Below are positions 15,082 to 60,471 of a stretch of DNA of 64,000 nucleotides, piece after piece. The notes beneath the pieces were generated by a model. That model was not told where the DNA came from and made no database searches. It saw only the letters and a list, made by a program, of their open reading frames with translations. The translations under genes and the position numbers were made by a program. The stretch's first letter is position 1. Every line of letters starts with the position of its first letter. The stretch comes from Chiloscyllium plagiosum (lineage: Eukaryota): contig NC_057712.1 in NCBI RefSeq assembly GCF_004010195.1, forward strand, positions 14,951,684-15,015,683, read 5' to 3'.

Positions 15082-16200
15082 GGCAGTGGTTCTAGTGGCA
15101 TTGTATTGGTTCGATAATCCAGAGACACAGGTAATGTTCTAGGTGCCGTGGGTTTGAATCCCAAATACGGCAGATGGAGGAATATAAATCCAACAAAAAT
15201 CTGCAATTTAAAAAACGTCTAGTGAGGTCTATGAAACCAGTGTTATCATTATTAAAACACATCCAGTTAACTAATGCCACTGAGGGAAGGTGACTGTTAT
15301 CCTTACTTGGTCTAGAATAGAATCCCTATCAGGTGGGAACAAGCCAGTTGGCCCAACAAATCCACACGAACTCTCCAAAGAGTATCCCACCCGCTCCTCT
15401 ACCTAATACTTTACATTCCCCATGACTAATGCACCTAACCTACACATCCATGAACACTATGGGTAATATGCCATTGCCAATTCACCTAACGTACACATTT
15501 TTGGATTATAGGAGGAAACCCATGCAGACACAGGGAAATTGTACAAACTCTACTCGAATGGTTGCCTGAAGCTGGAATTGAACCTGGGTCCTTGGCCCTG
15601 TGAGGCAGCAGTGCTAACCACTGAGCCACTGTGCCACTCTGAGCTTCAATGTGGTTGACTCGAAATTATCCTCTGAAATGGGCTAGGAAACCATTCATTT
15701 ATATGAACAACTAGAAAGACTAAAGAAAAGAATGCAACTAGATGGACCCTGGCATCAACTCGAGCACTGAAAACAATAGTGTAACGGTGTCAAACAAAAC
15801 CCTGTCGATTCCATCAAGTACTCTTTACTAACATCTGGGCACAGTGCTAAAATTGGGAGTGCTATCTCACAGGCCAGTCAAGCAACAGCCTGATATAAAC
15901 ATGCCCATGGAAACATATCTTACAGGACAATGGCCTAGATACTACCATCACCATCCCTGACTCTGGCTTATTGCACTACTGATTATAATGCAGTTCCCAC
16001 CCTTGGCTGATGAATCAATACTCCTCGATGTTGATCAACACTTGAAGAAAGCACTGAAGTTGACAAGGGTTGGGGGACTCAATGTCCATGATCCATCGCT
16101 GCTTGGCAGCACCACCTCTAACTGAGCTAGTCGAGTCCGCAGGGACACGGACTGAGTCTGCAGCTGGTGGTGAAGCAACTTGCAACATTTGACCTGGTGC
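15082..16200 (+). mobile_element. 5' end of a LINE: tRNA-like head followed by degraded APE domain (interrupted by an HE1 SINE)
   Basis: Head matches the SINE at 977. After the HE1 it continues to FTNIW/LKLGVLSHRPVKQQPDI...ETYLT..TITIP and PPLADESILLDVDQHL...GGLNVH..LGSTT. Confidence 0.7.
15313..15637 (-). mobile_element. HE1-type V-SINE
   Basis: Reverse complement of gtggcacagtggctcagtggttagcactgctgcctcaca plus V-domain and CR1-like tail. Confidence 0.9.
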
Positions 16201-16208
16201 ATATCTGG

Positions 16209-16332
16209 GAGAAAGTGAGGACTGCAGATGGTGGAGATCAGAATTGAGAGGGCTTATGCCCGTAATGTTGATTATCCTGCTCCTCGGATGCTGCCTGACC
16301 TGCTGTGCTTTTCCAGCGCCACACTTTCGACT
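16209..16332. mobile_element. Penelope-derived short element with decayed hammerhead
   Basis: TSD ctggtgcatatctgg (16194-16208) / ctggtgcacacctgg (16333-16347); internal gagggcttatgcccgtaatgttgatt. Confidence 0.7.
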
Positions 16333-17341
16333 CTGGTGCACACCTGGACTTCAAATACGGTGTTGGCAACTTAAAACTGAGAAGTCTTGGAAGTAGTGAG
16401 CAATTCCACCCATTGGATATCACAAGACCATGCAAAAGCAGTGCCATAGAAGCATGGTGTTTATATAATGAAGTGAAAAGCATAAAATTCAACTGACTTC
16501 TACCAGGAAAAAGGATTGGTTGTTATTGAATCTATCCAATGCATCCCAAGTAGTTAGCTGCACCTAGTACCTACCATTACAATATCCTGCCACAGAGTGG
16601 TGTGCTGAGTATGGCCTACCATACAGCAGGGAAAATTACAGATGAAAGAAAATGAAGGCACTCATATCTTTGGATGAGGAGAACATTGTAGAGGTGAGTA
16701 GCATACAGGGTTAACTCTGACTATGTGACATGTTAATGAAACAGTCTATATCATGACAGGAAGTGATGTATTATCACATGATGTTGCTCATGTCAAAGTG
16801 AAGCAACTCTAATACAGTTCTTTAAAAACATGTTATTGCTACCCTCACTTCAACCAATTCTTTGGCTGGTCAGCAAGTTAAGAACATTAGAAATCCAAGA
16901 AGAGAAGAAGGAGGAGGAATGTGAAAATGGGGAGCCTATCACCAGCATAGCCACACTCATTGCTGCTAATATCCTTTAGAAGTTTCAATTAATGATAACA
17001 ACTGACACAAGTAAAAATGAAAGCCACCATCAAAAACAACATCCTTCTACCCTGCAGCACACTGTCACTTCCATCCCACACTAAATAATTCTTTAATCAG
17101 AATTCATCAATTACAAACTTATCCCATGTATCTCAGCTTGCAATTACATTCACCTGGAAGCAAATGAAAAGTTGAGTTAAATAATTGGTAATGGGACACT
17201 ATGTAGAGGTGCAAATGGTGCCAATCAATACCTTTTATCTGGTATTATAAAAGAAGGAAACTTAACGATATAACATTCTGTTGAACACACTTTTGTATCT
17301 TGGGTGCTTGTAAACTTTAACTTAGGCTTTTCTACCAGTTC

Positions 17342-17372
<31 letters not shown>
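17342..17372. repeat. (TA)n microsatellite
   Basis: Direct reading. Confidence 0.95.
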
Positions 17373-17373
<1 letters not shown>

Positions 17374-17877
17374 CATGTGGTTTCAACAGAAACAGAAACA
17401 GACTGCTGAGATCCCTGCCCTAGCTGCTGCAGTGCTTCTGATCGAGAGTCCCTGCAGATTGGAGCTTCTAAATGACCATGTCAAATATTGCTTCACTCAC
17501 TCCCTTGGTGGAGGAGTCTGTGCCATTAGGACATAGTACAGCATGATAGGTCACCTAGAGGTGCTTCATGTTCCCTTTTAATAAGTAACCATTGCCCATT
17601 CATAACAGAAATTAGATTAAAAAGCAATTATACTGCAGATTTGAATTCCAATTAAATCAGCAATGTCTTCTTGAATGGCAGAGCAAACTTAAGGGAATAA
17701 ATGATCTATTCCTGCTCCTTGTATGTTTGTATAATAACGTTCCTGAGACATGATACATTGTATGCATCGTACTTCGTAAACCCTAAGCCAACACAAGAGC
17801 ATTGCATAAATTTCCACAGAGGAGTCCCGTCTCTCCATTTATCTGCACCAACAATTAAATTGACTCCTCCTTCTAAT

Positions 17878-19445: not shown

Positions 19446-19624
19446 GTTTTTTTCTTGTTTTTTTTTCTTTTTAAAATATTTTTCTTACCCCCGCACTACC
19501 GCCTAACTGCAGTAGTGCTTATTTTTCCCCAGCACCCATGTCGTGTGTGTGCAGGTGTAGCACACAGTGAAGAACAACAGGTGTTTAAGTCTTTACTTGT
19601 ATTCCACCATCAGGAAGAAAGGAA
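19446..19624 (-). mobile_element. Poly(A)-tailed retroposon 3' end (L1/Tx1-like) with terminal stem-loop
   Basis: Perfect 14-bp TSD cactccttcattat (19432-19445 / 19625-19638); T-rich run equals poly(A) on minus; hairpin gcactaccgc-ctaact-gcagtagtgc. Confidence 0.75.
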
Positions 19625-20277
19625 CACTCCTTCATTATATTGGGCAACTTATTATTAAGTCAAAACCAGCAAACCATTTCCACTCTTTAACATTCCCAAG
19701 AGGATATAGCAATCACAAGGGTTGCATCGCTGGAAACCATGTGGAATGATTATCCCATCCATTCATGTGTGAAATCATACAATTGAATGAATTATAATGT
19801 TCTCCCGTATGCCCAGACGGTGGCAATGATGGCAAAAGTGTCCTGCAGTGATAACAAACTGAACAAAGAATTCTCAATTACTATGTCCCTATTCTCGAGA
19901 GTTCATGTTCTTTTTAAATATATATTGCGCTATCCACTGATTTTACTGGAAATGTAGATGTAAAAGGCTGATTTTCACTTTCTATTTGTAAGTCATTTTC
20001 TATTGAAATTAATGGCCAGAAGAAAATATTTTCAGAAATGCGCTGCACAACATACAGTTTCTGCTGACCTCAATCTCCTTTCTCACTGTGGTTGATGTTG
20101 ATTTGAAAGATAATCATTTGTTTAATTTCAACATTGTGTAATATTGTTATGTGGGTGACATCAGATTATCTGTCAGTCATGCATGTCAATGAAAGTCAGG
20201 AGAAGTTGCATTATGACAGTCGATCCAAGATCACCCATTTCATTTCATTATCCAAAACACAATTATCCCGCATATGT

Positions 20278-20479
20278 AAAAGCTGAAAGAACTGCAGATG
20301 CTATAATTCAGAAATAAAAACAGAAGTTGCAAGAAAAGCTCATCAGGTCTGGCAGCATCTGTGAAGAGAAATCAGAGTTTTGAGGAAGGGTCACCGGACT
20401 AGTATTGGAAACACTGATCTCTCTTCACAGATGCTGCCAGATCTGCTGCGCTTTTTCAGCAACTTCTGTTTTTGTTCCT
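20278..20479. mobile_element. Palindromic Penelope-derived element
   Basis: Inverted arms (aaacagaagttgc..ggtctggcagcatctgtgaagag / ctcttcacagatgctgccaga..gcaacttctgttt); perfect 10-bp TSD ccgcatatgt (20268-20277 / 20480-20489). Confidence 0.8.
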
Positions 20480-21954
20480 CCGCATATGTTGTGGGCTACA
20501 TTTTTGAGTCATCGAGCTTCATTGACATTTAAACTGTAGGAGATGAAATCATTCTACAAAACTGGGAACTGCAAAATACTTGAGTCCAACAATACATGGC
20601 CCCATTTAAAAGTATGCAAACCAGTTTAATAGTTCTATTTAACATATTAGCAGACTTTAAAAATTATATAATCTGCTTACCACCATGTCTACAAACACAA
20701 ACCATAACATGCAAACACTATCCGGGTTACATTTTGCAATTGGCCTAAGTAGTTAGTGATGAATTATGCAAAATTTAAAGAGTAGTGACCACATTGAAGT
20801 AAGATGCAAACTGTTATTAGCAAAGAAAGGGAATTTCTTTGTTCGATTAATCGAATTCCGGATAAGCAAATGCTCGAATTCAATCGATAATCAATTTCAA
20901 CAAAGTCTCATTGAAATCCAGGGTTTGAGTTTGAAAGAGTTAAACATATTACCTCTTCACTAATGATACAGTTAAGCCTGCTACAGAAATCAGTATATCA
21001 AACCTTGCTTTGAAGTGGAGTGTATTTGAATGCAGCTCAAAGATAACACTACAAATATTGCACAAATTTTGGCTAATTTTCATTTTTGAAAATACTTCTG
21101 ATTGATAACATTCTTTAAAATCTCTTGGTCAGATTTCTGCTCATTACTAAGATTCATAAAAACACTCCACTTTTAATTATTTCATTGATATATAAACATG
21201 CATTCTTTTGTGCCACTCAAAGCTGCATTTGACCTTCAGGTGTTTAGTGCTCTCACAGATGAGCTTAATGACTTCATTTTCCATCAAAGAGCAATCTTTA
21301 CAGAAACTGGCCACAAAGACTCAGCTAATTATATTCCAAAGCAAATCTTTCAAAATCACATTTCAAAGAGCAATATCTCCTCAAGCTGGCACAAATTTTA
21401 ATTGCTTGATTAAACATCCTTTGATGTTGTCATGGGTACCATTGTTGTAGATCCAGCAGATCTCATTATTTGGACATGTGTCTTATAATTTCGAGAAAAG
21501 TAATGCCGTCTCCTGACAATTTATTTTAGCCCCATTTTACCTACTAAAATGCATTTATTATTGAAATGAGATACTCAGATAAGAGATGAGCTCTTAGGCT
21601 CTGTTCTATAAACTGTCCTTTCTTTTATATCTTTACTATATAATTCAGAGTTTTACATGGTTCTTTAAAGTTCTACTTTCAATTCTTCTGAACAAACTAA
21701 TGACCACACAATTTTGTGCTTATGCAATTATGAGATCAATGAGAAGTTACATTTAGCTCATGTGTTGTGAGGACTCATTTAAAACCTTCAAAATCTTACC
21801 AAAATCATCATCTTAATTGGTATTTTTATTCTATTGTGAAACACCAAAGGAGTGAACTTCCAAATAGTTCTTCAGCTCTTTCATTATAGCTTTGTTGGAA
21901 AAGTTGTTGCACCATTTTTCCTTGGGTTTCCATATTTCTTCAGACAAAGTTATG

Positions 21955-22130: not shown

Positions 22131-22157
22131 TAATGGGGACGCAGTAGTGTCCTTATG

Positions 22158-22250
22158 GAACCAAAAGAGGAAATGCTGGAAAATCTCAGCATGTCTGGCA
22201 GCATCTGTAAGGAGAGAAAAGAGCTGACGTTTCGAGTCTAACTGACCCTA
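22158..22250 (-). mobile_element. Penelope-derived terminal-repeat fragment with half hammerhead
   Basis: Minus strand gggtc-agtta-gactc-GAAACGTC-agctc...cagatgctgccagac; the CUGANGA half is missing. Confidence 0.65.
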
Positions 22251-23010
22251 ACTGCTGAGCAACTGGGCGAATGGGAGAAGTCTCCTGAGAAGGAGGATGA
22301 GGGCAATGGGGAGGAGGAAGCTTTCCTTCCACATGATAGAGGTCAGCTACAACAGGCATTGCAAACCCAAGGACTTCATTCTCACCCAGTGCCTGGAGAT
22401 GGGGGTTGGGTGCAAAGGCAATTCTGTAATGGGAAGTGGTTATTGATCATCATGCTATCTTTTAATTAGCATTGGGAGGACAACCTGCAACCTCAAATGG
22501 TGCTACATACGCTCACACTTGATGATTGTAAATAAAAGCTCATCTTTGGAACTGCCCATATATTTGCTTGCCTGTGACAGTCTGCCATTGCTCAATAATA
22601 ACATGCTGGTCTGCACTGAGCAATGGAGACAGAGTAGTCATGACTTAGAGGGGTCAGATGAGACCATAACCAAGGACAGGTAAGCTGTGTGTGTGGCCTG
22701 GGGGTTAAACTGGGGCAAAAAAGTGAAGCTGTTTATGCCTGGTAGTTTCAACTATGTGCCACAACAGTGTGTGCTTGGGCTGTTGTCTTATTACATTGCC
22801 AAGTGAAGGACAAAAGTGTTAGCCAGGAATTTGGCTGAGGTTTAAAGATGGCACTGGCACCAGGAATGTCAGTCTATTCTGGGATATCTGGTGAGTGGCG
22901 AGTTTTTCTGGCTAGGGTGAGATGGTAGAATGAGGTTAGCATTAAAGAGAAAGAGAGCCATAGAGGTGGGCTAAGTAGCTAATGAGATGAGCTTTGGACC
23001 AGAGTGGCCT

Positions 23011-23347
23011 GGGCAGAACAGTGGCTCAGTGGTTAACACTGCTGTCTCACAGCGCCAGGGACCCAGGTTTGAATCCAGCCTTTGGGTGACTGCCTGTGTG
23101 GAGTTTGCACATTCTCCCTGTGTCTGTGTGAATTTCCTCTAGATGCTCTACTTTCCTCCTGTAGTCCAAAGATGTGCACGTTAAGTGGATTGGCCATGCT
23201 AAATTGCTCATAGTTGTTTCAAGGGATATGCAAGCTAGGTGGATTAGCCATGGGAAATGCAGGGTTACAGGAAAGGGTGGAATGCTCTTCAGAGGGGCAG
23301 TTTGGCTTTGATGGGCCAAATGACCTGCTTTCAGAGGGATTCTATGA
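23011..23347 (+). mobile_element. HE1-type V-SINE
   Basis: gtggctcagtggttaacactgctgtctcacagcgccagggaccc...tgtgtggagtttgcacattctcc, tail gattctatga. Confidence 0.93.
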
Positions 23348-25970: not shown

Positions 25971-27300
25971 TTGAGGTGGGAGGACATATTTTCCAACCTA
26001 AAAATGGTGAGTTGGGGACAGTAAATTAAAAACACAGAATAATTTGAAGCAAGATACAACTTGGCTCTGACAGGCATGGAAATTGCCGATTCATTTTAGC
26101 GTTCACGTAAAGTTGTATGATTTTCTAGGGGTTAGGAAAACATGCCATAGGAAAGGAAGTAAAACTGGAGTGCTCTTGTGGAGCCAGTTCCACTGACAAA
26201 CTTTGAGCAGAAATCACTTGTCAACATAGAGAATTTAGAGGTCCTTCTGAGGAATTTAGAGGTTTTCAAATAGATACCAGCAAGACAGGTTTTAACAACA
26301 GATGGGATGAGAGAGACAGTTGTCTTCTACAACAGAGCAGCTGAGTTACGGAGAGCAATGCCAGGTGACAAGGTATGTCCAAGAGGTAAACAGGAGAGAG
26401 AGGTGTAGAGGAGAGAGGCGACTAAGAGAGGGAAAGGTTTTTACCAGATGTGCACTGTAGATGTTTGGCTTCCTTAACCTTTTGAAAAAGCAGCATGCTG
26501 AGATTTTCATCTTAGAAGATGGCAGATATTTGCAGATTCCTACAAGAACAGCTAATCCCTGATGAATTTTGTTCTGTGAATTTCTCAGAAATGATCTTTA
26601 ATTCATTTACATCTGGTTCCTTCCAAGATGCTGCCAAAGAGACTTTAAGGGTGTCTCAGTCCATGGCACTTATCTATCCATATAATTATCTGACTCAGGG
26701 CTCTTGTGGTGAACCTTATATCTGAGCCAGGAAACCTGGGTTCAAGTCCTACCAACTTCATCGGTGTCCAGTAAGATCTCTGAACATTACTTAAGGATTT
26801 ATATAATTTCATTGGAAGCAGTTCGGAACGGTTCATTTGATGATCCCTGGTATGGAGAGATTGTCATATGAGCAAATGTTAAACAGGTTGAGATTCTACT
26901 CACTGGAAGATGAATGAAGATTGAGAGGTGATCTCATTGAATCAAAACATTGAAATTAATAAGTTTCTGATTGCTCGTCAGAGCTGGGAGTTTTGTAAGC
27001 ATTCACTGTGGTGATAATGAACATATCTATGTCTTTGGCTGTCTTCCTACAGTACAAGCCATCAATTATATAATGTGAAAATTCTGGGATGATTACACAA
27101 CCAGATATTATAACTATAAGGGATATTCATCCATTAATGCACAGCTGAGATACAAATAATAATAAATGCTATCATAAACTTCCAAAATAAGACAGTCCAA
27201 AATGCTCTAGCCTTTTAGTCCAAGAAACAGACTTAATTCCACTACAATAAGGGCCACATAACGAGCTATTATGCCAAAAGCAAGCCATTAGATTGTTGAA

Positions 27301-27418
27301 CAAAAACAGATGTTGCTGGAAAAGCTAAGCAGGTCGGACAGCATCTGTGAAGAGAAATCAGAATTAAAGTTTCAGGTCCATTGACCCTTCCTCAGCATCT
27401 ACAGTTCTTTCGGTTTTT
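27301..27418 (-). mobile_element. Penelope-derived short element with hammerhead remnant
   Basis: TSD attagattgttgaa (27287-27300) / attagattcttgaa (27419-27432); minus strand CTGAGGA-agggtc-aatg-gacct-GAAA-cttt. Confidence 0.75.
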
Positions 27419-27603
27419 ATTAGATTCTTGAAGATGAGCTTGAGCTACCTCGATAGATCTGGAGGAGCTCTCTATACTCATTAGTGTCTCCAGGATGATA
27501 GTTGTGTTCTGCACCTTGAGCAAAGCTGTACAACAGAGACAATTGTAGGGAGAGAAGGGTAAAAGGGAGAAGAATAAAGAAGGGGAGGAATATAATAATC
27601 AGA

Positions 27604-27858
27604 GTTAAAAATCACACAACACCAGATTTTATTTCAACAGGTTTATTAGGAAGCACCAGCTTTTGGAGCGCTGCTGGTTGTGGAGTATAAGATCGTAGAA
27701 CACAGAATTTATGGTAATAGATCTTATACACCACAACCAATTGATGAAGGAGCAGCATTCTGAAAGCTAATGCTTTCAAATAAACCTCTTGGACTATAAC
27801 CTGGTGTTGTGTGATTTTTAACTTTGTATACCCCAGTGTAACACTGGCACCTACAAAT
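27604..27858. mobile_element. Palindromic Penelope-derived element, second family, hammerhead remnant with AGCT palindrome
   Basis: Arms gttaaaaatcacacaacaccag / ctggtgttgtgtgatttttaac; tTGATGA-aggagc-agc-attct-GAAAGCTa at 27741-27769; TSD tataataatcaga / tatgatgatcaga. Confidence 0.75.
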
Positions 27859-28884
27859 TATGATGATCAGATATACATTGCTGGAGCAGCTGTATATGTG
27901 TTGGTCTGGTTCCTCAAAGTGTGGAAGATCCAGTTGATTATTCCAACCAAGACAAATAAATATTGAAAAACAACTCCAGAGCCAATGCATGTCTTCATTG
28001 CTTTGCAATAAACTATTCTTAAATCATGCATGCGTCTTTTCTACATTCATCCAATATGTTCTGTCATGCCTTTCTCATGAAGTAAGTTGGATACTTGGGA
28101 TGTAATAGTGGTCTAACTGTGAACAATGTGGTAGTCTGTACAGTTTATGCCATTTAATTTAACAAAAACATTGATGAAATAAAATTTTATCAAATACATA
28201 TGTGCACACCTTTGGGGAATTAGAATTGCTTTATCTTATACCTTCAATAACTAGCACATACTGCATTCGGTATGGTTTCATTAAGGTAGATCTCAGATTA
28301 CTACACTCACTGTTGAGGTGCCTATGGCCAATGGCCTCTGGATTTTGATGCCTTTGAGGAGTCCACCAGAGACCAATCACTAGCTCCTGTGCAGGGGCAG
28401 ATTCAGCCTTGAAAGATGGGGCATCATGTCAGTTACTGACTAGCACATTAAGTGGAGCTTTCTGCCCTTTATCCTTTCATTGCTTTCAATTTCCATGGCA
28501 ACTGTCACATTACTCCTACTGCCTCAGTCAAGCTTATTAAAGGTCAGGGATGAGTTAAAGGCCATGGTTAAAGCATTTTAAGGAATTTATCATTTTGCTT
28601 CAATGATAGACATGCTAGCCTCCAATACCTGAATGCTAATCATCTTCATTGTCATGTGATATGAGTGCTTGAAATGCCACAGAGGCAGCCAATCACTTTC
28701 CATATTAGACATTCTTGTGACTAGCTGTGCCACCAATCTACCAGCATTTGAGTTGTACTTGTCCAACAACTCCATTTTCAGATTGTTTGTCAGTGTGTCA
28801 GCTCGATTTGGAAATGATTGATATATACACACACAAGCACACACACACATGTGCATCTGCTCCTGCCTATTGGAAAGGCATGGT

Positions 28885-31900: not shown

Positions 31901-31904
31901 TGCA

Positions 31905-32210: not shown

Positions 32211-32257
32211 ATATTTTCTATCCTGTTCCCCAAAAGAAAATGTCAGTAAAACCCAGG

Positions 32258-38957: not shown

Positions 38958-39515
38958 TTATTTTTCTTCATTCATAGGGTTGGGGTATTGCTGGTCAGGC
39001 CAGTACTTATTGCCAACCTCTAGTTGCCTTTGAGAAGGTGATGCTGAATTCGTTTCTTGAACCATCACAGTCCATTTAGTGTAGGCACATCCACAATGCC
39101 ATGAGGGAGTCCCCAGGATTTTGACCCAGGGCCACTGAAGGAATGGTGATATCACAGAATCATTGAATCCCGACAGTGTGGAAAACAGACCCTTCAGCCC
39201 AACAAGTCCACATTGACCCTCTGACGAGTAACTCACCTAGACCCATTCCCCTACCCTACTACTCTACATTTTACCCCTGACTAATACACCTAATCTACAA
39301 ATCCCTGAACACTATGGGCAATTTAGCATGGCCAATTTACCTAATCTGCACATCTTTAGATTGTGGGAGGAAACCGCAGCACTCGGAGGAAACACATGCA
39401 GACACGGAAGAATGTGCAAACCCCACACAGGCAGTCGCCGAGGCTGGAATTGATTTATTTCCAAGTCAGGAAGGGGAACTTGGAGGGAAACTTCCAGGTG
39501 CTGGTGTTCACACAT
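38958..39515 (-). mobile_element. LINE 3' fragment (family of 57020-58085) with nested 5'-truncated HE1 SINE (about 39152-39453)
   Basis: Tail ttcattcat..ctggtcaggccagtacttattgcc on minus; gaaggaatggtgatat and atttccaagtcagg rejoin across the HE1. Confidence 0.8.
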
Positions 39516-39945
39516 TGTAAAACTGCCTCAGAGACTAACCCACTTGACATTTTGGGAGTAGACAGGGTGAGAAATGTTAACTAATGGAAACAAAAACTTG
39601 GAGCAGATTCGGAATAATGGGTTAGCCACATGGGTCTAAGAGATCATGAGGTAATGATGATGAAAAATCACAGTAGCAGGAGAGAGAGAGAGAAAAAAAA
39701 AGCCTGGAGGAGATATTCTGAATTCATGTAGAACTCTGTGTAAGTCTGTAATTGAAATGGAAGGCCCTTGATGAATAAAGATAGAAGCAGAGAACTTTGA
39801 TAAATAATCAGGCCTAATGAGAAGTGGAGATACTCTCCTCTGGTTCCCCCTTCCAACACCAAGGAGTATGAATCTCTGACTAATCTATGGTCTATACTGC
39901 AAGCCAAAAGAAAACTCAAATAAAGTGCTACAACGTATTATTAAC

Positions 39946-40173
39946 GTTTGTGTGAAGATTTGTAGCTCGGGTGCTCGTTGTTGTGGTTCTGTTCGCCGAG
40001 CTGGAAGTTTTTGTTGCAAACGTCCCCTGACTAGGCGACATCATCAGTGCTTGGGAGCCTCCTGCGAAGCGCTTCTTTGATGTTTCCTCCGGTGTTTATA
40101 GTGGTCTGTCCCTGCCGCTTCCGGTTGTCAGTTTCAGCTGTCCGCTGTAGTGGTTGGTATATTGGTATTATTG
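39946..40173 (-). mobile_element. Penelope-like element 3' end with damaged hammerhead
   Basis: Perfect 11-bp TSD gtattattaac (39935-39945 / 40174-40184); minus PIYQPLQRTAETDNRKRQ; gca-CTGATGA-tgtcgcc-tagtca-ggggac-[GAAA missing]-gtt-tgc. Confidence 0.75.
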
Positions 40174-41271
40174 GTATTATTAACCTACAGTACTGCTCCA
40201 AGCTGTTGATACCCACAAATACACTCATCTATTTTTTGTGATGGTCTCAGCCTCTTCCAGGTCTGACTTTTAAGTCAGCCACACAGCCCTTAATATGGTT
40301 TTGTATACTCCTGGCAGAGCTTCACCCCACTCACACACTTCATTTCAACACCTCCCCTCACCCATGCCCAACCCCTGCCCCACCTTATCCAATTTTGCAT
40401 TTATATTTGGATTCATGTTAAGTGCTATTATATTTTCTGAAACATTTAGTTCAGTCATGGTTTGAACTCCTTACTGTTATTAGGGCTATTAGGTGTTTGG
40501 ACTGCAAGTGCACAACCATGACCAATCAAATGTTAGGGAAGGAGGCTTAAGATTAAAATTTCATGCTCAACAACGATCTTATGATCTGATTGAAAGTAGT
40601 AAGCTGTCTAAATCTTTACAAATCATTGCCACATCTGAGCTATTTAATCCTAATTTTAACAAACAGATTTTTGACAGATTTTTTTTTATTAAAGTTTTAA
40701 TATTAATAAAGATTACAGAAACTCAGAAAACTCTAAAAATAGCATTTGAAAGTCCTGCTTATGTCACTGATGACCACCTTAATTAGAAATAGACCTGTAA
40801 AATTGCAGTAAAGTTTTTGTATTCTGTATAATAGTTTTGAGAATTCTATAATTACTTTAAGAATATGATACATGAGCCAGTAAAAGGGCAGTCCTGGAGT
40901 TAATTAAGAAAGAAAGCAATTATGCACAGCTGTCACTTATTGATAACAGTTTGCTTTTCTGCGATGTGGAATTATATAATACCGTGAAGACATACAATTT
41001 AAATCAGCACAGTGTATATGGATACATTTTTATTGGAAGCATTGATGTTTAACTGATGCGATATGCCTTAGAGTTAATGAGCCTATTCTCAATTATTCAA
41101 AATCATATTTTTAATAATACCTACACTCACAGCAATTTGATTTCTGCAATAATTTGTTCCATCAACCCGTTATCTTTTCGAAAATCAACTCATTATTTTC
41201 CTTGAAGTGAACAAAAAGGCAAACCAAGAAACAGAAATCGTTGCTATGTTATCCTCAGAGTCACAAAATCT

Positions 41272-41610
41272 GGGGTGATGGTAGTTCAGTAGTTAGCACT
41301 GCTGCTTCACAGTGCTAGGGACTTGGGTTTGATTCCAGCCACAGGCAACTGTCTTTACAGTTTGGACATTCCCCCCGTGTCTGCGTGGCTTTCCTTCAGG
41401 TGCTCAGGTTTCCTCCCACAGTCCAAAGATGTGCAGGTCAGGTGGATTGGCTGTGCTAAACTGCCCATAGGGATGTGTAGGTTAGAAGGATTAGCCATGG
41501 CAAATGCAGGGTTATAGGGTAGAGGAGTAGATCTGGGCGGGATGTCACTCAAGCTTGCACTTGATGGTCCAAATGGCCTGCTTCCACACTGTAGAGGCTC
41601 CATGAATCTT
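41272..41610 (+). mobile_element. HE1-type V-SINE
   Basis: gttagcactgctgcttcacagtgctaggg...tgtctgcgtggctttccttcaggtgctcaggtttcctcccacagtccaaagatgtgcagg. Confidence 0.9.
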
Positions 41611-41659
41611 TGAATTATATCTTACATTTATTTATTCAAGTATACTTTCAACAAAACCT

Positions 41660-42360: not shown

Positions 42361-42498
42361 GTGAAATATGAATACATCGTTAATATCTGGAATAAAAAGC
42401 TAGCTTAATGATGGCCATTGTTAATGGTGTAAAAGTCCATCTGACTCACTAATGTCCTTTAGTGAGGGGACAGAGCGTGTTGACAGATGAGATGGTTG

Positions 42499-42777
42499 CT
42501 GAAAATGTGTTGCTGGAAAAGCGCAGCAGGTCAGGCAGCATCCAGGGAGCAGGAGAATCAACATTTTGGGCATAAGCCCTTCTTCAAGGACCGCAATTTC
42601 CCCCCGACGTGGTCGACGATGCCCTCCACCACATCTCTTCCACTTCCCGCTCCTCCGCCCTTGAGCCCCGCCCCTCCAACCGCCACCAGGACAGAACCCC
42701 ACTGGTCCTCACCTACCACCCCACCAATCTCCATGTACAGCGCATCATCCGCCGTCATTTTCTTTATTAAACTCTGC
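42499..42777. mobile_element. Penelope fragment: inverted terminal repeat with decayed hammerhead plus ORF remnant
   Basis: Perfect 16-bp TSD acagatgagatggttg (42483-42498 / 42778-42793); plus strand (one frameshift) FKDRNFP/DVVDDALHHISSTSRSSALEPRPSNRHQDRTPLVLTYHPTNLHVQRIIRRHF; minus tTGAAGA-agggc-ttat-gccc-aaaatgtt. Confidence 0.8.
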
Positions 42778-44149
42778 ACAGATGAGATGGTTGGAAAACT
42801 AAAAATTGATTGAATGAAAGAATAAATAATTAAACTACAAAGGGAATGTTTGCAAAATAGGGAGCGCTTTATGATTTTAGCAACACCCTGTTTTCACTTA
42901 GGACAGCAGAGACTATGGTTAATGGATCTGCTGTTGACACTTGCAACTCCTGTAGTTCATCTTCTTTTTCTCTTTTCTTGCATCATTGTTATTTCTTCCT
43001 TTCTTGCACAGTAATCCTTTTTGTTAGTGTTAACACCTCTCCTAGGAGTTTCCTAAAGGTTGAGATTATAATGATAGTGAGAGTTGCATTGATCTTGTTT
43101 GAAAATGTTGTAGTCGTGGTTGATTTGCTCAACAATGATATTACAACTCAACAGCTCTCAATGGTACACAGCATTTCATACTTACCAGTTTTGAGCACCT
43201 AGTCATGATGTTAATACATTGTATTTAGCATTATGATCGTGTTGAACAACACAATATTTGACATGAATTAGGGACTTGGTCTCCCATAAGGATTGTATGG
43301 GTAGTCAATCTGACTAATACCGTCATGGACAGATGCATTTGTGACTTTCAATTGATGAGTTGATAAGGAAGATGTTTTTGCATTACTTAGTGGAGATTCA
43401 GTCTAAAAGCTGTGTCTTACAGTATAGAAGGAGGTTATTTACCCCATTATTTCACCCAGTTCTCCAACTGAACATGATGACTTAGTGACATTCTCCAGCC
43501 TTTTCCCCTTATCCTTGCACTTGGTTATTTTAATACAAATGATCCATTGCTACCTTGAATGCCTCAATTCAATTTGGCCTGGTCTAGTATTATGGTACCC
43601 AAAGCCTGACTTGGTGAGAGATAATGGTGTCCCCCATCAATTTATTTGCAACAGAGGAGATGCTAGAAGGACATCTGCCTGCAGTCCATTTAAGGCTTGT
43701 GAATGGACAATTAATAACCTGCCTACCCCCCCTGAGATAAGTGGCAGTGGGAGAGGCCTGCATCCAATATGAAGTCCCACAGGTTTAACCCTGCTGATTG
43801 CTAGTTAATGAACTTGTTGCGGAGTGCAGGGAATACTTCCTTCCCTCATCCCTGAGACCATCGGCTTTGCTTGCCAATGTCAATTCTCTTTCCATGTCCT
43901 GTCCAACATATTTTTCCCCTCCAGCCCCCTTCCTGGGGCCTAACAATCAAACTGTAGAGAGATCCCAGACTTGCCTGGTTTTCAGGACACCCTTCCTTCT
44001 CTCTGATCACCTGCAAACCTGACAGTGACCATTGGTCTGAACTCAGACTGACTGGGGAGATCTATGAGGCAGGTAAAGTGGCAGGTAAGAGTGGGTAAAT
44101 GTATCCTAACTAACCTTGACCAGTTTGCAGTCACCTCGTTTCAACTGAA

Positions 44150-44940: not shown

Positions 44941-45574
44941 GGTTAATGGGAAGTTAATTGTCTGATGCCTGTTTTGGGTCCAGTGATCCTTCCTCAGATC
45001 TGCTGGTATCCAGGAAAAAGGTGTTTTTTTTTTGAGGAGGGACTAAAGAGTAAATGCAAAAACCTGGAGTGACAGGGAAATTAATGACAAGAACAAAGAT
45101 TGAAATGGAAATCCTGTCAGAGAGGGGACCCAAACTTCTTCAATGTGGACAGGCCTGGAAGAGATATAATAGTGCACTAAATAAAAACTGAAATACCAAG
45201 TTAGGATTTTGTACTCATCGAGAATGTTAATTTGTTTTACTTTCCTTGATGAAACATTCTGAAATGAGCATTTACGTGAATAAAAAGTTCATCAGGTTTG
45301 CTTCGGTTTTCTGAAACTGATAAATACAAGCTGATAAATGTAGATACAGTTTCTTGTTCATCTGGCTTGTTAGCCTGTTTATTTTAAATGGCTAATTTTA
45401 CAACAGTGGTGGGGGGGGGAATGGAGTTTAAAATGAACACGTTGAGCATTTATGCACTGGCCCTCCTAGATACTTCTACAAAAAAAGTAATTTTGTTTGA
45501 GCAGGCTGGTCAGCAATTAAAATAGAAGCATAATTAAGTCACGTGACACCCCCAAGATATGACCATTAACTAGC

Positions 45575-46772: not shown

Positions 46773-47000
46773 TGTCACAATGGGGTTAGCACTGCTGCCT
46801 CATAGATTCAGGGACCCAGATTTGATTCCAGCCTCGGGAGACTGACTGTGTGGAGTTTGCACATTCTCCCAGTGTCCGCGTGGGATTCCTCTGGGTGTTC
46901 CGGTTTCCTCCCAGCAGGTTAGGTGGATTGGCCATGCTAAATTGCCCCATAGTGTCCAAGGATGTGCAGGCTAAGTGGGTTAGCCATGGTAAACGTAGGA
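46773..47000 (+). mobile_element. HE1-type V-SINE, 3' truncated
   Basis: gttagcactgctgcctcata...tgtgtggagtttgcacattctcccagtgtccgcgtggg. Confidence 0.88.
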
Positions 47001-50790: not shown

Positions 50791-53324
50791 CTGAAACACA
50801 GTCTGCAGGGCTGGATGTTTGAGATAGCAAACTTGGACAGAAGTCTGAAATTTGACAGGAGTGCTACAGTGTTCTAATAAGGACAGCACTTATTATAAGA
50901 CAGTCATTGTTAATGAATTACATGAAGTATCCATTTGGTAACCCTGGCCATCTACAACACATTTGTTGTATAAGACAATGGATCTCAACGGGTTAATATT
51001 TGTATTATATTGGCTTCACTCACTCCTACTGCTATGCATAGTCTCCATTGAGACAACAGATTCAATTCTAGCTTCTGAAGGGAGTAGATGTATCTGTATC
51101 AGCTCCCCGTGACCCTAGTAATTATACCTGAACAAACATATTGCTATCATGTAAATAATGTCATGCTCTTGTTATCTAGGAATAGTAATTATTCCATATA
51201 TACTGTACAGTGGTGTATCTCCACCACTAATTACTAGGTGGGCCCAAGAGATCAGAAAACAAAGGAGTATTAACAGGAAACCATCTCAAACAACCCTTGC
51301 CCAGAACCACATACTGGTAGCGGTGGTCACCAATGGTCACTATGGGAAACATCAGAAATTTTATCATAAACCCCAGCCTATTTGGTAAATTCTTATGTAA
51401 GGAATTGAGGCTGAGAGATTGTTGGTAAGGATCAGTTTTTAAATTGCTTCACGAAACACTAAGACAAGCCGTAAGGGTGAAATATCAAGTACTTCATACA
51501 GAATTTAGCAGCTGAGAGTTACCTCACAAACCCATTCAATAGTTGGTTCTTTTTAGCAGAAGGCAATGAGCAAATGTCAAAATGATTTGAAAAAATCTGA
51601 GATCCACACTCTGAATTTTAGTGCATAGTTATTTTCTGCATTCCTATCTGGGAGTTTAACACCCGGAGGCAAATAAATAGCCACATAGTTGGATGTTTCT
51701 GAGATGGGGGAGCATCAGAGCTGTGCATGTCAGAGGATCCCTCTACAATCATACCCTTCCTTTTTCATCTCTCCATCTAGCCTCCAAAACCCACACACCT
51801 CACTCCTCCTTAGGGTGTCCATTCTCTCCACACCCAAAAATGTGTCTGTCCAGGATCTACGTTGACACTTTCAGACCTAGCGGCACCTAATTCTTGATTC
51901 TATGAATTAACCAGTAACATTTGATGTGGATCCTTGATTTGTTAAGATACCAATTGCTGGTAATACTGGATAGGTCCAATCACAGAATAGAACTTTGCTT
52001 GACAGGTCATGCTTAATCTTCCAGTTGGTTGCCACGGTGTTTAGTCATTGGACATAAAGAACATTTATAGGCTCATGTTTAAGAAATGAACATAAACACA
52101 TAAAGCTATTTATGTAAGAGAGTTTAGAGAAGTTTTAGCATAAGCAGCAAAACAAAGTTTCAACATGTTTCACAAAGTTATTCTTTTACAGATATTTAAT
52201 CCCAGATAAATATTTCTTCCATTTCAACTATTTAATTTTACTGAACTGACTTCGCTCAGTTCTCTTCTTCGAGACACACAGTTTTGTGACTTCTTTCCGA
52301 GTCTGCTGATGAGAATCTTTTTAAATTCTGATGGCCTCGGCATCTTTTCAGTTCTAACAACTTGAAAACCGTGACACAAACGCTTACAGCTTGGAGACTT
52401 CACAAAACAGAAACCCTTCAGGAGGGGGAACTGTCCCCTTCTGAACTGAAATTCTGATTCTTCTGATTTGAAGTCAAAAGCTAAACTGATGGCATCTGAT
52501 CCTTTGTAAACTCAGCAGTATAAACACTTCATCCACCAACAGCACAGATATCCTGCCAGGCATTTGACTGGATCATAGACTTTTTAGAAGTAATGCTTTT
52601 AGGTCACAGTTCCAAATGAATTTCTGACCTTTTATATAAAAAGAAACTTCACAAAACCATTACCACACATCAGCATCTATTTTAAAATTCCAAATCCCAA
52701 GATAAAGATAAGAATACAATATACACCTTTTCTCTCAGCCATAGAGCATAACATCAAGGTGGTGCAACCTATATTAAAATTGTCTGTAACATGCTTTTCT
52801 AAAGATGCAGATGGCTGTTAGAAATATGTCTTCAGAAGACAACGCAAGAATGCTTCATCATTACTTCCAGTATGGCATCACTCAGAAATAAGAGAAAAGG
52901 TATGATTTTAAAATATATAATATTTAGGAGGACAGTGCAACCATTGATTAAAGTATTCTAATGTTGAATCACAGTAAAAAGTGCAACCAATGCTAACAGG
53001 TATGGTTGTAGTGCACAGACACAATGTTAGAAATTCCAATGAAGCTTTTGGATGCAGAGCAGGACTTCCACCATCCCTTTACCCTATCACTGACCCTGTT
53101 CCAAAGCTTGCAGATGGAGTCTTCCGGATGTTGCTGTAAAAGAGACAGCAATCAGAGCACTACCACATAGATGGAGTGAGTGGGTATGGAAAGGTATGGT
53201 GCTATAGTCCGATAGGAAGTGAAAGTCTTTGATGTAGATGAGAAATGAGCAACTGTAAAAGAGATTTTGCTTCCCAGTTACACAAAGCAGTAAAAGCTAG
53301 TAACGAACTTTGTTGGCTACACCT

Positions 53325-53407
53325 TGGATGCTGCCTGACCTGCTGTGCTTTTCCAGCACCACTCTAATCTTGACTCTGATCTCCAGCATCTGCAGTCCTC
53401 ACTTTCG
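53325..53407 (+). mobile_element. Penelope-derived terminal-repeat fragment (family of 16209/42499)
   Basis: ggatgctgcctgacctgctgtgcttttccagcacc...tctccagcatctgcagtcctcacttt, flanked by ctacacc on both sides. Confidence 0.7.
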
Positions 53408-53489
53408 CCTACACCCCATGTATGTGTCAATGCCCTCGGTCACCATTGACCATGAATAGAATAATAAATAGTGGGACAGAAGGAGGTCA

Positions 53490-53995: not shown

Positions 53996-54189
53996 AGAAT
54001 ATAAGCTCCCAACACCAATGATAGGTGCTATAGCCTGCATGTGCAGTGGTGACCTATGTGACACCAGTCCGTCCTGACACGACCTCTAATGCTTGTATGT
54101 ATCTACACCTACTTGAGTAATTTCAGTGTTAATGCATGGACAATGACTGCTTCAGATGTATCCATTCCAAGAGTGATAGCAGGTGTGAT

Positions 54190-55240
54190 TAATGGTTCCA
54201 GGGGTGAGAAACGTCAGGTATCAGTATACTGAGGAACCTCAATTATCTGAAAATTGGATTATCCAAAGGAGATCTCGAGGCCCTGATAGAAACATTATAT
54301 CAAAGACATGTTTCCAGTAGTGATCACGTCATTTGTTTACAGTAATTAAACAGGCACCGTCTCCAAATGATTGACCTCCTACCCTCTCTCTCCCCCCACA
54401 CTTTCCCTGGAGTTCCAGACTAGTGTGCATCCTAAACCCCCCACCTCCCCAGATAATCTGACCAACATTGTCCTGTACAGGGCAGAGGTGGAACCTGTCA
54501 AAATGTTGCAGTAAAAGGTTGGGTGTGTGGCTCTGGCTGTGTGTGTGTGTGTGTGTGTGTGCGCGCTATTTGGAGACTTACCCCACAAAGGCAGCAGCAG
54601 CAGCAGTCTTATTACTGTTGTCCAATCCGGCTGCCCCGGAGAGGAGACGGGGGCAGTGCTGGTCGGGGTGGGGGCCGGCTCGCTCGCTGTGTGCTGCTGC
54701 TAGTCTCCTGAACGGGGAACAGACTTTAAAAACGTCTGTTTTTAAAGGAGGAAAGGCATTTAATCGATTAACTGAATAATCAATTATCCAAACAAAATAG
54801 TGTCCAACCATCTCGTTCGGATAATCGAGGTTCCCCTATAAATTGAAGAAGCTGGAACTGTTCTTGGAGAGAAAGAGGCTAACAGTAAATTTGATGGAGG
54901 TTTTCAAAATCATGAGTGGGCTAGATAGAGTAGATGGGGAGAAGCTGTTCCTGCTTGTAAAGGAACAAGAAGAAAAGGGGTAAAGCTGTAAAGTGTTGCA
55001 AAACAAACAAAGGGGGGATGTGAGAAAAAAGCATTACTAACAAGTAAAAATTGTTAGAATGTGGAATGCACTGCCTGGAAATATTGTGGAGGCAGGCTCA
55101 ATTGAGTCATTCAAGAGAGCATTAGATAATTATTTGGATGGAAATAGTGCACAAAGGTATGGGGAAAAGCAGAAGATTGACACGAGGTAATGATATTCCA
55201 ATGAAGAGCCAACGCAGGCAGGATGGGCCAAATGGCCTCA
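54190..55240 (+). mobile_element. CR1 3' end interrupted by a Tigger-type element
   Basis: aatggttccaggggtgagaaac before and gaagctggaactgttc...tttgatggaggttttcaaaatcatg...tggaatgcactgcctg after the insertion. Confidence 0.75.
54229..54838. mobile_element. Non-autonomous Tc1/mariner (Tigger/pogo-type) element with internal (GT)n
   Basis: TA|ctgaggaacctcaattatctgaa ... ttcggataatcgaggttccccta|TA; same TIR family as 21955-22130. Confidence 0.82.
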
Positions 55241-57019: not shown

Positions 57020-58085
57020 CAATTCATCATATGGACAAAAAAGCTGAACTCCACAAGTGAAGTGAGAGTGACGGCCCTTGACATCAAGGCGGCGTTTAAC
57101 TGAGTGTGTGGCATCAAGGAGCCTGAGCAAAACTGAGGTCAGTGGGAATCAGAAAGAAAGGTTGGAGTCAGATGTGGCACAGAGGGAGGTGGCTGTGACA
57201 GTTGGAAGTCAGTGATTTCAGCTCCAGGACATGCCTGCAAGAGTTCCTAAGAGTAGTGCCCTAGGCCCAGCTGCTTCATCAATGACCATCACTGTGTCAG
57301 AAGAACAAAAGTTGGAATATTTACTGATGATTGCAGTGTTCGGGATCATTTATGACTTCTCAGATACAGAAGCAAACCATGTCCAAATGCTGGAAGAGCT
57401 GAGCAATTTCCAATTGGGCTAAAAAGTAACAAGTAACATTCACGCCACACAAATGCCAGGCTATGACCATCTCCCATAAGAGATAATTAACCACTGCCTA
57501 TAATATTCAGTGGCATGACCATCACTGAATACCCCACCATCAACAATCTGGGGATTACTGTTGATCAGAAACTGAACTGGACCGGCCATACAAATACAGT
57601 GGCTGCAAGAGCAGGTCTGAGGCTAGGAATGCTGCAGCGTATAACTCAACTCCTGATTCCTTAAAGCCAGTTCACCATGTATTAGGCACAGGTCAGCAAT
57701 GTGATACAATACTCCGCAGCTGTTTGGATGAATGCAGCTTCAACAATATACAAGAGGCTTAACACCATCCAAAGCAGCCTACTTGATTGTTTGTGGATGG
57801 GGTACCAATTAGTCACTCCACCACTGACACTCAGTAACAGCAGTCTCTACTATCTGCAAGACACATTGCAGAAATTCACCAGGAATCCTTAGACAGCACA
57901 TTTCAAACACATGACCAATTCCACCTACAAGGACAGTATATACGTGGGAACATCACCATCTGCAAGCTTCCCTCCTAGCTACTCACACCCTGCCTGGGAT
58001 ATATATCATTGTTTCTTCACCAAAGATGGACAGTAAATGGTGGACCAGCCAGTGACGCCCACATCTCATGAGTGAATAAGAAAAG
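57020..58085 (+). mobile_element. LINE 3' half with degraded RT (CR1/L2-group, ALDIKAAF-type)
   Basis: WTKKLNSTSEVRVTALDIKAAFN, RVPKSSALGP (consensus GVPQGSVLGP), later YSAAVWMNAAST..KRLNTIQ; tail cagccagtgacgcccacatctcatgagtgaataag. Confidence 0.8.
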
Positions 58086-58684
58086 CAGACATTTGAGGGC
58101 TAACTACTGACCAGAAGTTTATTGAGATTTGACAGGTTGATCTTCATGTCTCCAGATTGCAAAGGACCAGACATACGCAGCAAGTCATGCACTGAGACCC
58201 TGTGGAGGTCCTAACCTGCTGACTGAAAAGGTCTCTTACATTGAGTCAAAGTTGGAGATTTTGGGACTGACCTGATTTAGTTACCCAGACAGTTGCCTAA
58301 AAAAAATACAAAATTCATATTCCAAGTCCTGCATCACTATACAGCTGACACTGCTCTGACTCATTCCCCAACTACCGTCCTGACTCCCTGACTATGCCCT
58401 GATGCTACAACACCTCCTTGATCTAACCTGACTAGTCTGTAACGCAGATACATTTCAACTCAACCAGCTACTCTACCATTTACACACCTCATACACTTCT
58501 GCACTTATCATTTTTCACATCTGCCTCCAGTCACATCTACTACCCGAACCGACTCAGTGTCCTATCTATACTGAGAAGTTTTGGGACTTTTAAATACTTA
58601 CTTAACAGCATGTAATAGCTCGTGCCGTGAGAAAAGGGCATGGTTTCTGTATAGATACTCTTTGCTGGTCTCTCCAAGATCTTG

Positions 58685-59040
58685 CCACGTTGGCTCAGTG
58701 GTTGGCACTGCTGCCTCACGGTGGCAGGGACCCGAGTTTGATTCCAGCATTGGGTGACTGTCTCTGTGCAGTTTGCACATTCTCCCCGTGTCTGCGTGGT
58801 TTCTTCTGGGTGTTCTGGTTTCCTCCCACAATCCAAAGATGTGCAGATTAGGTGAATTGGCCATGATAAGTTGCCCTTAGTTTTCAGGGATGTATAGGCT
58901 AGGTGCATTAGTCAGGGGAAATGTAGACTAATAGGTGTAAGGGAATGGGTCTGGGTGGGATACTCTTTGGAGGGTCCATGTAGACTTGTTGGGCCAAATA
59001 GCCTGTTTCCACACTGTAGGGATTCTAATTCTAATTCTAA
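58685..59040 (+). mobile_element. HE1-type V-SINE, near full length
   Basis: tggctcagtggttggcactgctgcctcacgg...V-domain...ccacactgtagggattctaattctaattct. Confidence 0.93.
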
Positions 59041-59567
59041 AAACATGTGCTGAGGGAGTTTTTGAAGATCTTCAATTAAATTAGAATCAGAATTAGAGAG
59101 AGGAGCACAGAGATACAGGAGCACAGTGAAAAGTATACAAAGTCACTGTTTCTGGTGCCATCTTACATATAAAGATGCCTGGGTACATAATCTTAATAAT
59201 GAATTTGCGCTACAAAAAGCACAATGTGAGAACAGAGTAGAGACTGAGTCTTCAATAATGGGAAGCTCATATATACCTTACCAAGTTTCTCCACCATCAC
59301 CATGACTCCGGTCTGGTGTGTGATAGAATAATTACCACTCACTTGCATAGATGAACTAGTATCAATACTCAAGGAGTTTTAAGCATCTTGAGAAAAGATT
59401 AATTGACTGATATTCCTGCCACAAGAATCAATGTCACCTTTCCACTTCCACCTCGGTCACCAAGGTTACTTGGATTTCCAAAAGGCATTTGATAAGGTGC
59501 CACATCAAAGGTGGCAGAAAATAAAAGCTCATGGTGTCTGTGGGAAACTTACTGTCATGGACAGGAA

Positions 59568-59836
59568 TGAGAACTGAAATTGCTGGAAAAGCTCAGTGGG
59601 TCTGGCAGCATCTATGGAGAGAAATCAGCATTAACATTTTGGGTCCAGTGACCCTTCCTCAGAAGATCTGAGAAGTCGCTGAGGGTCACAGAAGAGTTCT
59701 GAGGAAGGGTCGCTGGATCCGAAACGTTAACTCTGATTTCTTCCCACAGATGCTGACAGACCTGCTGCGATTTTACAGCAATTCCTGTTTTCGTTTCTGA
59801 TTTCCAGCATCTGCAGTTTTGTTTGGTTTTTATTTA
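59568..59836. mobile_element. Palindromic Penelope-derived element inserted in a CR1 RT fragment
   Basis: Inverted arms of about 95 bp; TSD-like tcatggacaggaa (59555-59567) / tcatggatagaa (59837-59848); upstream LDFQKAFDKVPH CR1 remnant. Confidence 0.85.
59693..59734 (+). ncRNA. Minimal type-I hammerhead ribozyme (Penelope-associated, palindromic helix III)
   Basis: AGAGUU-CUGAGGA-a-GGGUC-gcug-GAUCC-GAA-ACGU-U-AACUCU: 6-bp helix I, intact core, 5-bp helix II, ACGU palindrome, GUU cleavage triplet. Confidence 0.8.
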
Positions 59837-60471
59837 TCATGGATAGAACATTGCATGGGGAAAAGGAAGATCTAAGAGGCATATATTTAAAACTAAAAAT
59901 AATCAACTCATTTTTTGCTCTTGGAAACAAAACTGCTTAAAATGGTTGTATTAGCTTCTGTGGTTTTATGTGACTCACATTAAGATTTTATGTAACCAAG
60001 TGAAAGATAACAGCAAGAAAGATAAACGAGACAGCAGATGATAAACCAACTCTTCAACAGTTGACAGAAAACAAGAGAAATTAATATGGGATAAAAGCAT
60101 ACACTTACTGACTCAGGAAGATTTGTCAAAGGATTCACTGACAAATTATTGCATGATATAGCTACCGTAGGTAATAATTTGTAAGCTGCCCCTTTATAAT
60201 TGATTTCACCACAAATGGTAAATAATGAGTGCTATTCAAGCAATACAGGCAATTTTCCAAATAAACATGAGATGACTGTACTTAAATGTTGTTATAACCA
60301 TTTGGACTGGACTTCAGTTAATGCCAAAATAACCATTAATGGAATAATATCTTATAGGGAGTTGTATTTTTAGGTCAAATGCAGAATTACATTAGCTATC
60401 AGTTCAGGACTGATAGGTTGGTAAACACAGAATGCATTCAAAACCGAAGGTTTTCTCAAGCTGTTCACTGT

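Follow-up and report, generated by a model that had tools for sequence, protein, structure and literature searches.

Penelope-Like Insertions in the Window

The present analysis concerns short insertions that carry hammerhead ribozyme motifs and derive from Penelope-like elements (PLEs) in a 64,000-nt stretch of the Chiloscyllium plagiosum genome (contig NC_057712.1, positions 14951684-15015683 of the 3.56-Gb assembly; hereafter the window). The window was mapped against references for four families (A, B, C, and D), in which C3 of the hammerhead core is numbered +1 and the ribozyme is predicted to cut after +28 (B), +29 (C), +30 (A), or +34 (D). The family A reference is 700 nt long, its further-upstream part having been removed as family B contamination. 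An initial annotation of the window had counted about ten such pieces, and ten indeed lie within 16194-59848, with an eleventh at 5173-5284 (Table 1); a match at 54523 was dropped as merely a CA repeat. In all four families the pieces, or arms, fall into two classes of 3′ end lying 35-45 nt apart, here called long-tail and short-tail. Six of the seven inserts bounded by target-site duplications (TSDs) are made of two segments arranged head to head, five of them of two arms of the pseudo-long terminal repeat (pLTR) and one of a pLTR arm and a piece of open reading frame (ORF). All seven TSDs claimed earlier were recovered, with 0, 0, 0, 1, 2, 2, and 2 mismatches; the one at 59555/59837 is real but had been given as about 12 bp and is better read as 10 bp with one mismatch. 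The 30-nt linker between the arms of that insert (59665-59694) resembles rearranged pieces of the ribozyme region.

Table 1. PLE pieces mapped in the window, with segment strands in brackets and family positions counted from C3 of the core (+1).
Feature	Position	Strand	Segments and family positions	TSD	Core and remarks
Old family-A-like long-tail arm	5173-5284	+			beyond the span 16194-59848
Family B insert	16194-16347		inverted long-tail stub 16208-16242 (-), +91 to +125; short-tail arm 16249-16335 (+), +8 to +94	15 bp, 2 mismatches	core incomplete, CUGA part gone
Family A insert	20268-20489		long-tail arm 20277-20379 (-), +31 to +134; short-tail arm 20376-20479 (+), -3 to +100	10 bp, perfect	short-tail arm core damaged
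Older family-A-like single short-tail arm	22159-22257	-		none found	core decayed
Family A insert	27287-27432		short-tail arm 27299-27395 (-), +1 to +97; long-tail stub 27393-27421 (+), +107 to +136	14 bp, 1 mismatch	short-tail arm with one palindrome change
Family C insert	27591-27871		short-tail arm 27600-27720 (-), -44 to +86; long-tail arm 27720-27863 (+), -20 to +123	13 bp, 2 mismatches	short-arm core deleted; long-arm C3 changed
Family D single long-tail arm	39935-40184	-	arm 39943-40165, -117 to +110	11 bp, perfect	97% to family reference; includes last ORF codons; 5-nt deletion takes out GAAA
Family B insert	42483-42793		short-tail arm 42498-42586 (-), +2 to +90; ORF piece 42578-42760 (+), -945 to -762	16 bp, perfect	arms meet via 9-10 nt overlap; ORF piece is the region after the RT core
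Family A fragment	44971-45018	-	-20 to +27	none
Family B long-tail arm	53322-53410	+	begins at +41	weak 9-bp repeat only at the ends	without ribozyme
Family A insert	59555-59846		short-tail arm 59572-59664 (-), -1 to +91; 30-nt linker; long-tail arm 59695-59836 (+), -3 to +138	10 bp, 1 mismatch
Intact minimal hammerhead core	59699-59728	+			only intact core, and only exact core match, in the window; predicted cut after 59728

The existence of four distinct families was confirmed, and each reference holds an intact core: CUGANGA, an extra base, helix II, GAAA, and an ACGU or AGCU palindrome. The features of the minimal hammerhead, namely the conserved core, the extra base between 9 and 10.1, the G10.1-C11.1 pair, and the palindromic 15.2-16.2, are found in all four. 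The shared hammerhead architecture proposed by the initial annotation thus stands for the family references, but most copies in the window have decayed; likewise, helix II does differ among the four families, but one of the listed stems, ggagc/attct, is a decayed form of GGAGC/GCTCC. In the larger genomic sample described below, the core is preserved in 77 of the 234 arms extending across the motif. An Rfam scan of the window gave no match at E<=1, the motif falling below the family models, and energy-minimum folds of monomers and dimers gave neither the hammerhead nor the palindrome-dimer fold cleanly. Ribozyme cleavage is unnecessary to explain the inserts.

Coding Sequences Linked to the Four Families

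All four families are contiguous with coding sequence for reverse transcriptase (RT) and GIY-YIG endonuclease (EN) in the same genome, which supports the Penelope origin claimed at first. In family B, one locus (L207) has a 749-aa frame with an RVT_1 match (E 1.2e-8) that ends about 180 nt before the ribozyme and tail; its GIY-YIG match (E 2.9e-4, 21.5 bits) is slightly below the cut-off of 22.6. A second family B locus (L210) is a full pLTR-ORF-pLTR unit, in which a 458-nt direct repeat of 92% identity flanks the ORF at a distance of 3.43 kb, and what are probably the first codons of the ORF fall within the tail. Such partial-tandem direct pLTRs around an ORF were seen for family B only. The plus-strand part of the window insert at 42483 is 98% identical to ORF-bearing family B copies. 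In family D, a 420-aa frame with RVT_1 (E 7.8e-9; L259) reads into the ribozyme, and copies extend upstream into a GIY-YIG-type frame, with a YKIPC..HYIG motif, that stops inside the ribozyme. In family C, frames of 585-620 aa that show motifs of RT, linker, and endonuclease precede the ribozyme by about 660 nt; their Pfam support is weak (RVT_1 at E 1.2e-5 in one of two frames). Family A is older and offers ORF homology only, in broken frames; of 20 loci selected by their upstream DNA, 18 have ORF homology and, after it on the same strand, the A arm from its start. ORF-bearing relatives of the kind sought by the initial annotation therefore exist for all four families, with a full-length unit in B.

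A CX2-5CxxC linker between RT and EN marks the Neptune/Nematis PLEs (Craig et al., 2021; PMC8557442). The linker is present at 14 of the 20 family A loci and in the 749-aa frame of family B, and is absent in D; in family C it was seen by eye at two loci (L139 and L263), and the pattern missed it at both of the two other C loci. By this linker, the one character behind the clade labels, families A-C appear to be Neptune-type and D Poseidon-type. The testable defining features of endonuclease-containing (EN+) PLEs were all found, that is, an ORF with RT and GIY-YIG, direct pLTRs, an inverted truncated copy with a tail, and a TSD of variable length. The pieces in the window are best explained as 5′-truncated insertions that retain the hammerhead-plus-tail end and belong to four Penelope-like families with ORF-bearing members in the same genome.

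Abundance and Pairing of Arms

The genomic sample comprised 1,220,889 called bases chosen regardless of content (the window, its 200-kb flanks, and twenty 50-kb blocks), with a shuffled copy as control. It holds 298 inserts with ribozyme or tail sequence, or 15.6 per 64 kb, and the class is very abundant, as had been suggested; the real sample gave 505 matching segments and the shuffled one none. About 7% of the sampled bases match the four families, and simple extrapolation from the 298 inserts gives about 0.87 million genome-wide. The median insert is 141 bp long, 236 of the 298 do not exceed 300 bp, and 56 contain ORF sequence.

The two 3′ end classes are combined in a highly regular manner. 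Among 105 same-family head-to-head pairs, 73 could be classified, and 66 of these join a long-tail to a short-tail arm, against five short-short and two long-long pairs (p 2e-13); the long-short combination occurs in all four families. Tail-to-tail pairs number only three. A TSD of 10-17 bp, 68% AT, was found at 35 of the 66 long-short pairs (17 of 21 young ones) and at 1 of 198 random positions, so that the TSDs are not due to chance. Of 667 variant sites, 201 (30%) are common to the two arms of an insert, compared with a mean of 11% and a maximum of 15% in 500 cross-insert shuffles, and such arms diverge by 11.5% from each other and by 18.0% from other inserts. The short arm reaches further 5′ in 34 of the 66 pairs, the long arm in 15, and both equally in 17; copying of the long arm therefore cannot give the short arm in those 34. 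The junctions are of 60 different types among the 66 pairs. Overlaps at quasi-palindromes by the ribozyme edge are frequent among them (-2/-2 with an 11-nt overlap four times, and +15/-4 three times).

One family C two-arm insert was observed in the same flanks on many small unplaced contigs (L134, L135, L140, L144), where it has been multiplied along with a larger repeat that contains it.

5′ Ends at the Ribozyme Edge

In families A-C, 141 of the 210 arms at risk stop at -10 to +2, and only 7 of the remaining 69 stop in the next 13 nt (p 1e-17). Among these piled ends, 66 adjoin an inverted arm and eight adjoin a TSD, and the excess persists with these 74 confirmed ends alone (p 1e-9). The ribozyme cut site was rejected as the 5′ end, only 26 of 323 arms stopping at +29 to +41. 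Single arms (59/95) pile up like paired ones (82/115), so that microhomology used in joining was rejected as the sole cause; long and short arms also behave alike.

Thirty family B copies chosen by ORF N-terminal DNA alone showed the same 5′ ends: of the 16 at risk, ten stop at -10 to +2 and six extend further up. This implies that ORF-bearing RNAs, too, have their upstream pLTR unit copied, with the same ends as in the short inserts. In eight of the 30, the copy itself ends 3′ within the ORF and has an inverted tail arm as its partner. Many of these young copies (L308-L337) end 3′ inside the ORF N-terminus, at +400 to +860, which suggests further internal priming sites.

At the pile-up spot, the references carry the initiator-like hexamers TCAGTT (family A) and TCATTC (family B). 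Upstream of the family A ribozyme there are a branch-like CTGAC and a CAG. A splice acceptor in front of this ribozyme was considered and rejected, only 2 of 138 piled arms (both of family B) having upstream sequence that matched further up, and no GT-AG joint into the ribozyme occurred among the RNA-read joints listed. In the family D reference a TATAAA box precedes the core by 54 nt (about -54), and the 5′ ends of young D copies show no pile 25-30 nt downstream of it. Old D-like copies show an apparent pile-up (8/18) that is probably due to upstream divergence, and they were excluded as support.

RNA reads were sought in two runs. About 2% of a poly(A) single-cell run (X20) was read and gave 2117 reads on one family B copy, from both strands, of which 93% continue into unlike sequence and 150 have heterogeneous loose ends at -3. 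No site where many molecules begin or end, including the cut site, was seen in this poly(A) library, a type unsuited to showing a start or a cut. These reads look like host transcripts running through genomic copies. The other run (X21) gave no reads.

A Proposed Two-Ended Priming Model

The inserts are very probably 5′-truncated PLE end pieces, likely made by nicking of both strands, synthesis of one cDNA from each internal RNA start, and head-to-head joining. The GIY-YIG/RT protein would nick the two target strands 10-17 bp apart, the stagger giving the TSD. Within the RNA there would be two start sites, separated by 35-45 nt, and a cDNA primed at each of them would yield a long and a short arm, and the two cDNAs would then be joined at their 5′-side ends, often via short overlaps. 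That both arms are separately primed is probable. There is a biochemical precedent for such events, as the protein of PAc, a PLE of the anole and a predicted dimer, acts at AT-rich DNA, where it cuts both strands and extends them; two internal RT starts bound its tail, and uncut RNA is used (PMC11167929).

As for the 5′ pile-up, it may reflect run-off at the RNA start, the RT being primed at the upstream pLTR unit on a transcript whose first nucleotide lies about 1-4 nt before the core; this is given a little short of an even chance. It is preferred here because the ribozyme fold should be encountered at its 3′ side by an RT that travels 3′ to 5′, and because the initiator-like hexamers of families A and B sit at the very spot where the N-terminus copies also end. 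RT stalling or cDNA annealing at the ribozyme is a fairly unlikely alternative, and trimming of the RNA back to a protein-protected ribozyme is judged quite unlikely. In its most general form, the proposal would be that the mRNA of Neptune-type PLEs starts 1-4 nt before the core and that a dimeric protein usually primes both strands at two nearby tail sites, so that run-off products of 90-130 nt, joined head to head, would make up the majority of events. This is put forward tentatively, as something that could well prove wrong. If true, several hundred thousand scars would map the start site and two-ended priming genome-wide; if, moreover, the promoter is internal, each scar would carry a start site, a ribozyme, and an RT-entry site and could itself be copied.

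Several points weigh against this picture. Of the 105 head-to-head pairs, 32 are unclassed and seven of those classed are long-long or short-short. There are also 173 single-arm inserts, with hidden partner stubs at only 4 of 146, so that either many events leave one arm only or the other arm has been lost. Variants common to both arms could stem from a shared subfamily or from later gene conversion. Among the 141 piled ends, 15 run into the upstream sequence of another subfamily and are artefacts, 49 have unique but unconfirmed flanks, and three are masked. The rate of passing beyond the ribozyme edge is similar in the N-terminus copies (6/16) and in all arms (69/210; p 0.78), and equal pass rates agree with an RNA start and, just as well, with a barrier fixed at that position. 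In young copies of family D there is a ribozyme yet no pile-up (0/8; p 1e-4 vs. young A-C). The untemplated-G signal that would mark a cap is confounded by subfamily variants. Finally, the Penelope of Drosophila virilis is described as having its start site some 120 nt upstream of the ribozyme, made up of 46 nt and a 75-nt intron that ends at helix I (PMC2377424; PMC4209133).

Alternative Explanations

The strongest competitor accepts the PLE origin and derives the inverted pair from a single cDNA that primes itself or folds back at palindromes, perhaps with an antisense strand as template, the short end being set by endonuclease resolution. Both self-priming (PMC3846280) and EN-mediated resolution of the tail (PMC8557442) have been proposed before, and the frequent junction overlaps at quasi-palindromes near the ribozyme edge, as well as the variants common to both arms, speak in its favor. 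However, self-priming explains the overlaps but neither non-overlapping arms, as in the inserts at 16194 and 27287, nor the pairs whose short arm holds upstream sequence missing from the long one. The insert at 42483 and the eight N-terminus copies, in which the partner of the tail arm ends within the ORF, also speak against it, as do single arms that pile up at the same spot as paired ones. Fold-back is considered rather unlikely.

Another possibility is that the short forms are a non-autonomous class, similar to short interspersed elements (SINEs) or retrozymes, transcribed on its own from an internal promoter or as circular RNA and re-inserted in trans by PLE proteins. The sharp common 5′ ends, the two fixed 3′ ends, and the prevalence of short inserts over those with ORF sequence are in its favor; an internal promoter like that of long interspersed elements (LINEs) is reported for D. 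virilis Penelope (PMC2377424), and trans-mobilization of pLTR-bounded cargo for a rotifer (PMC3846280). On the other hand, no short-only lineage was found, short and ORF-linked arms being interleaved by sequence. In a nearest-neighbor test comparing about 80-88 nt, and hence of limited power, short and long arms (65/70 in family B, 28/49 in C, 49/17 in A) gave p values of 0.945, 0.19, and 0.09, respectively, the sampling of family A being query-biased. Tandem copies, a check proposed at the outset, amount to five same-strand two-ribozyme neighbors among 338 clusters, with no regular array and none in the window. The copies hold an uncut ribozyme instead of starting at the cut site, the junctions are varied, and copies selected by the ORF N-terminus have the same 5′ ends. 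The retrozyme-like option raised in the initial annotation is therefore very unlikely. Its diagnostic, fixed ends for a non-autonomous family against random 5′ truncation for PLE debris, fails as a dichotomy, the 5′ ends being non-random yet the same in ORF-bearing copies.

The chance that the palindromic inserts are ordinary MITEs (miniature inverted-repeat transposable elements), derived from DNA transposons and bearing long terminal inverted repeats, is negligible: inverted arms and TSDs are what they have in common, whereas here the outer ends are unequal by 35-45 nt, so that the terminal repeats are not symmetric, TSD length varies between 10 and 17 bp, size is not uniform, junctions differ, and the sequence is contiguous with RT/GIY-YIG ORFs, contrary to the absence of a Penelope link that had been named as refuting.

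Relation to Known Systems

The inserts are of an already described PLE kind that is unusually abundant here. EN+ PLEs (Penelope/Poseidon and Neptune; Craig et al., 2021, PMC8557442; Arkhipova et al., 2013, PMC3846280) have the same ORF with RT and C-terminal GIY-YIG, a pLTR that includes the first ORF codons, and the same insertion unit, in which 5′ truncation, an adjacent inverted copy arranged head to head, a one-sided tail of 30-40 bp, and a TSD are combined. Compared with these, the inserts here are much shorter on average and very dense, their TSDs are longer than in the rotifer examples (8-10 bp), and they show a 5′ pile-up at the ribozyme edge that goes unmentioned in the accessible parts of both papers.

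A 2014 study (PMC4209133) described minimal hammerheads in pLTRs, both scattered singly and paired on opposite strands. They share with the present ones the common extra base between 9 and 10.1, the G10.1-C11.1 pair, a short helix I, and a palindromic ACGU/AGCU in place of helix III; most are single dispersed motifs tied to truncated PLEs, and some form opposite-strand pairs 100-700 bp apart, as here. Helix II here has 4-6 bp, and the examples given come from fish, coelacanth, frog, and reptile, with no cartilaginous fish among those in the accessible part.

A close mechanistic parallel is the Poseidon element PAc of Anolis carolinensis (Frangieh et al., 2024; PMC11167929), which has the same two internal 3′ end classes bounding a tail, AT-rich targets, an uncut ribozyme inside insertions, and a tail within the ORF start. 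The PAc data were obtained in vitro for one Poseidon element, whereas the long-short pairing was counted here among inserts in the genome, from one Poseidon-type family and three of Neptune type; for A-C, unlike PAc, no obviously AC-rich loop holds the start sites. Animal non-LTR retrozymes (Li, Clavereau, and Pollet, bioRxiv 10.64898/2026.07.22.740005) are likewise non-coding, related to pLTRs, and equipped with a type I hammerhead, and they are reported in the one chondrichthyan sampled. They form tandem arrays with a ribozyme per unit, whereas the inserts here are single or inverted with variable junctions.

In a literature search, hammerhead-bearing PLEs in sharks were not found beyond a review mention and the one sampled chondrichthyan, although Repbase/Dfam and supplements may describe such families. 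The search returned no use of "twin priming" for Penelope/Neptune, nor the 5′ pile-up or a quantified long-short rule, which subscription papers, supplements, or repeat libraries may hold. PLE integration is poorly understood, and this genome is a very large natural sample of it. A mechanism with two start sites, observed in vitro for the lizard element, gains in vivo support, and in a second clade, from the near-strict long-short pairing. Palindromes of this sort can also be mis-annotated as MITEs or retrozymes.

Other Sequence in the Window

A large array of 15-bp tandem repeats, about 82% identical between units, occupies 8186-8455 and 9836-12736, with an N gap at 11827-12028; its short block (8186-8455) lies inside a LINE-like RT frame at 8158-9637. 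LINE-type RT fragments with DFSKAFDKV, GVPQGSVLGP, and FADD motifs, presumably CR1/L2-like, are found at 60358-60975 and 8769-9637. A dispersed repeat of 200-350 bp, probably a SINE, has seven copies (15313-15636, 23012-23345, 39152-39450, 41280-41613, 46784-46999, 58683-59033, and 61280-61635). There is also a 200-bp inverted duplication of 89% identity at 6943-7194 and 7842-8157, in which CTGATGA is present with no hammerhead fold.

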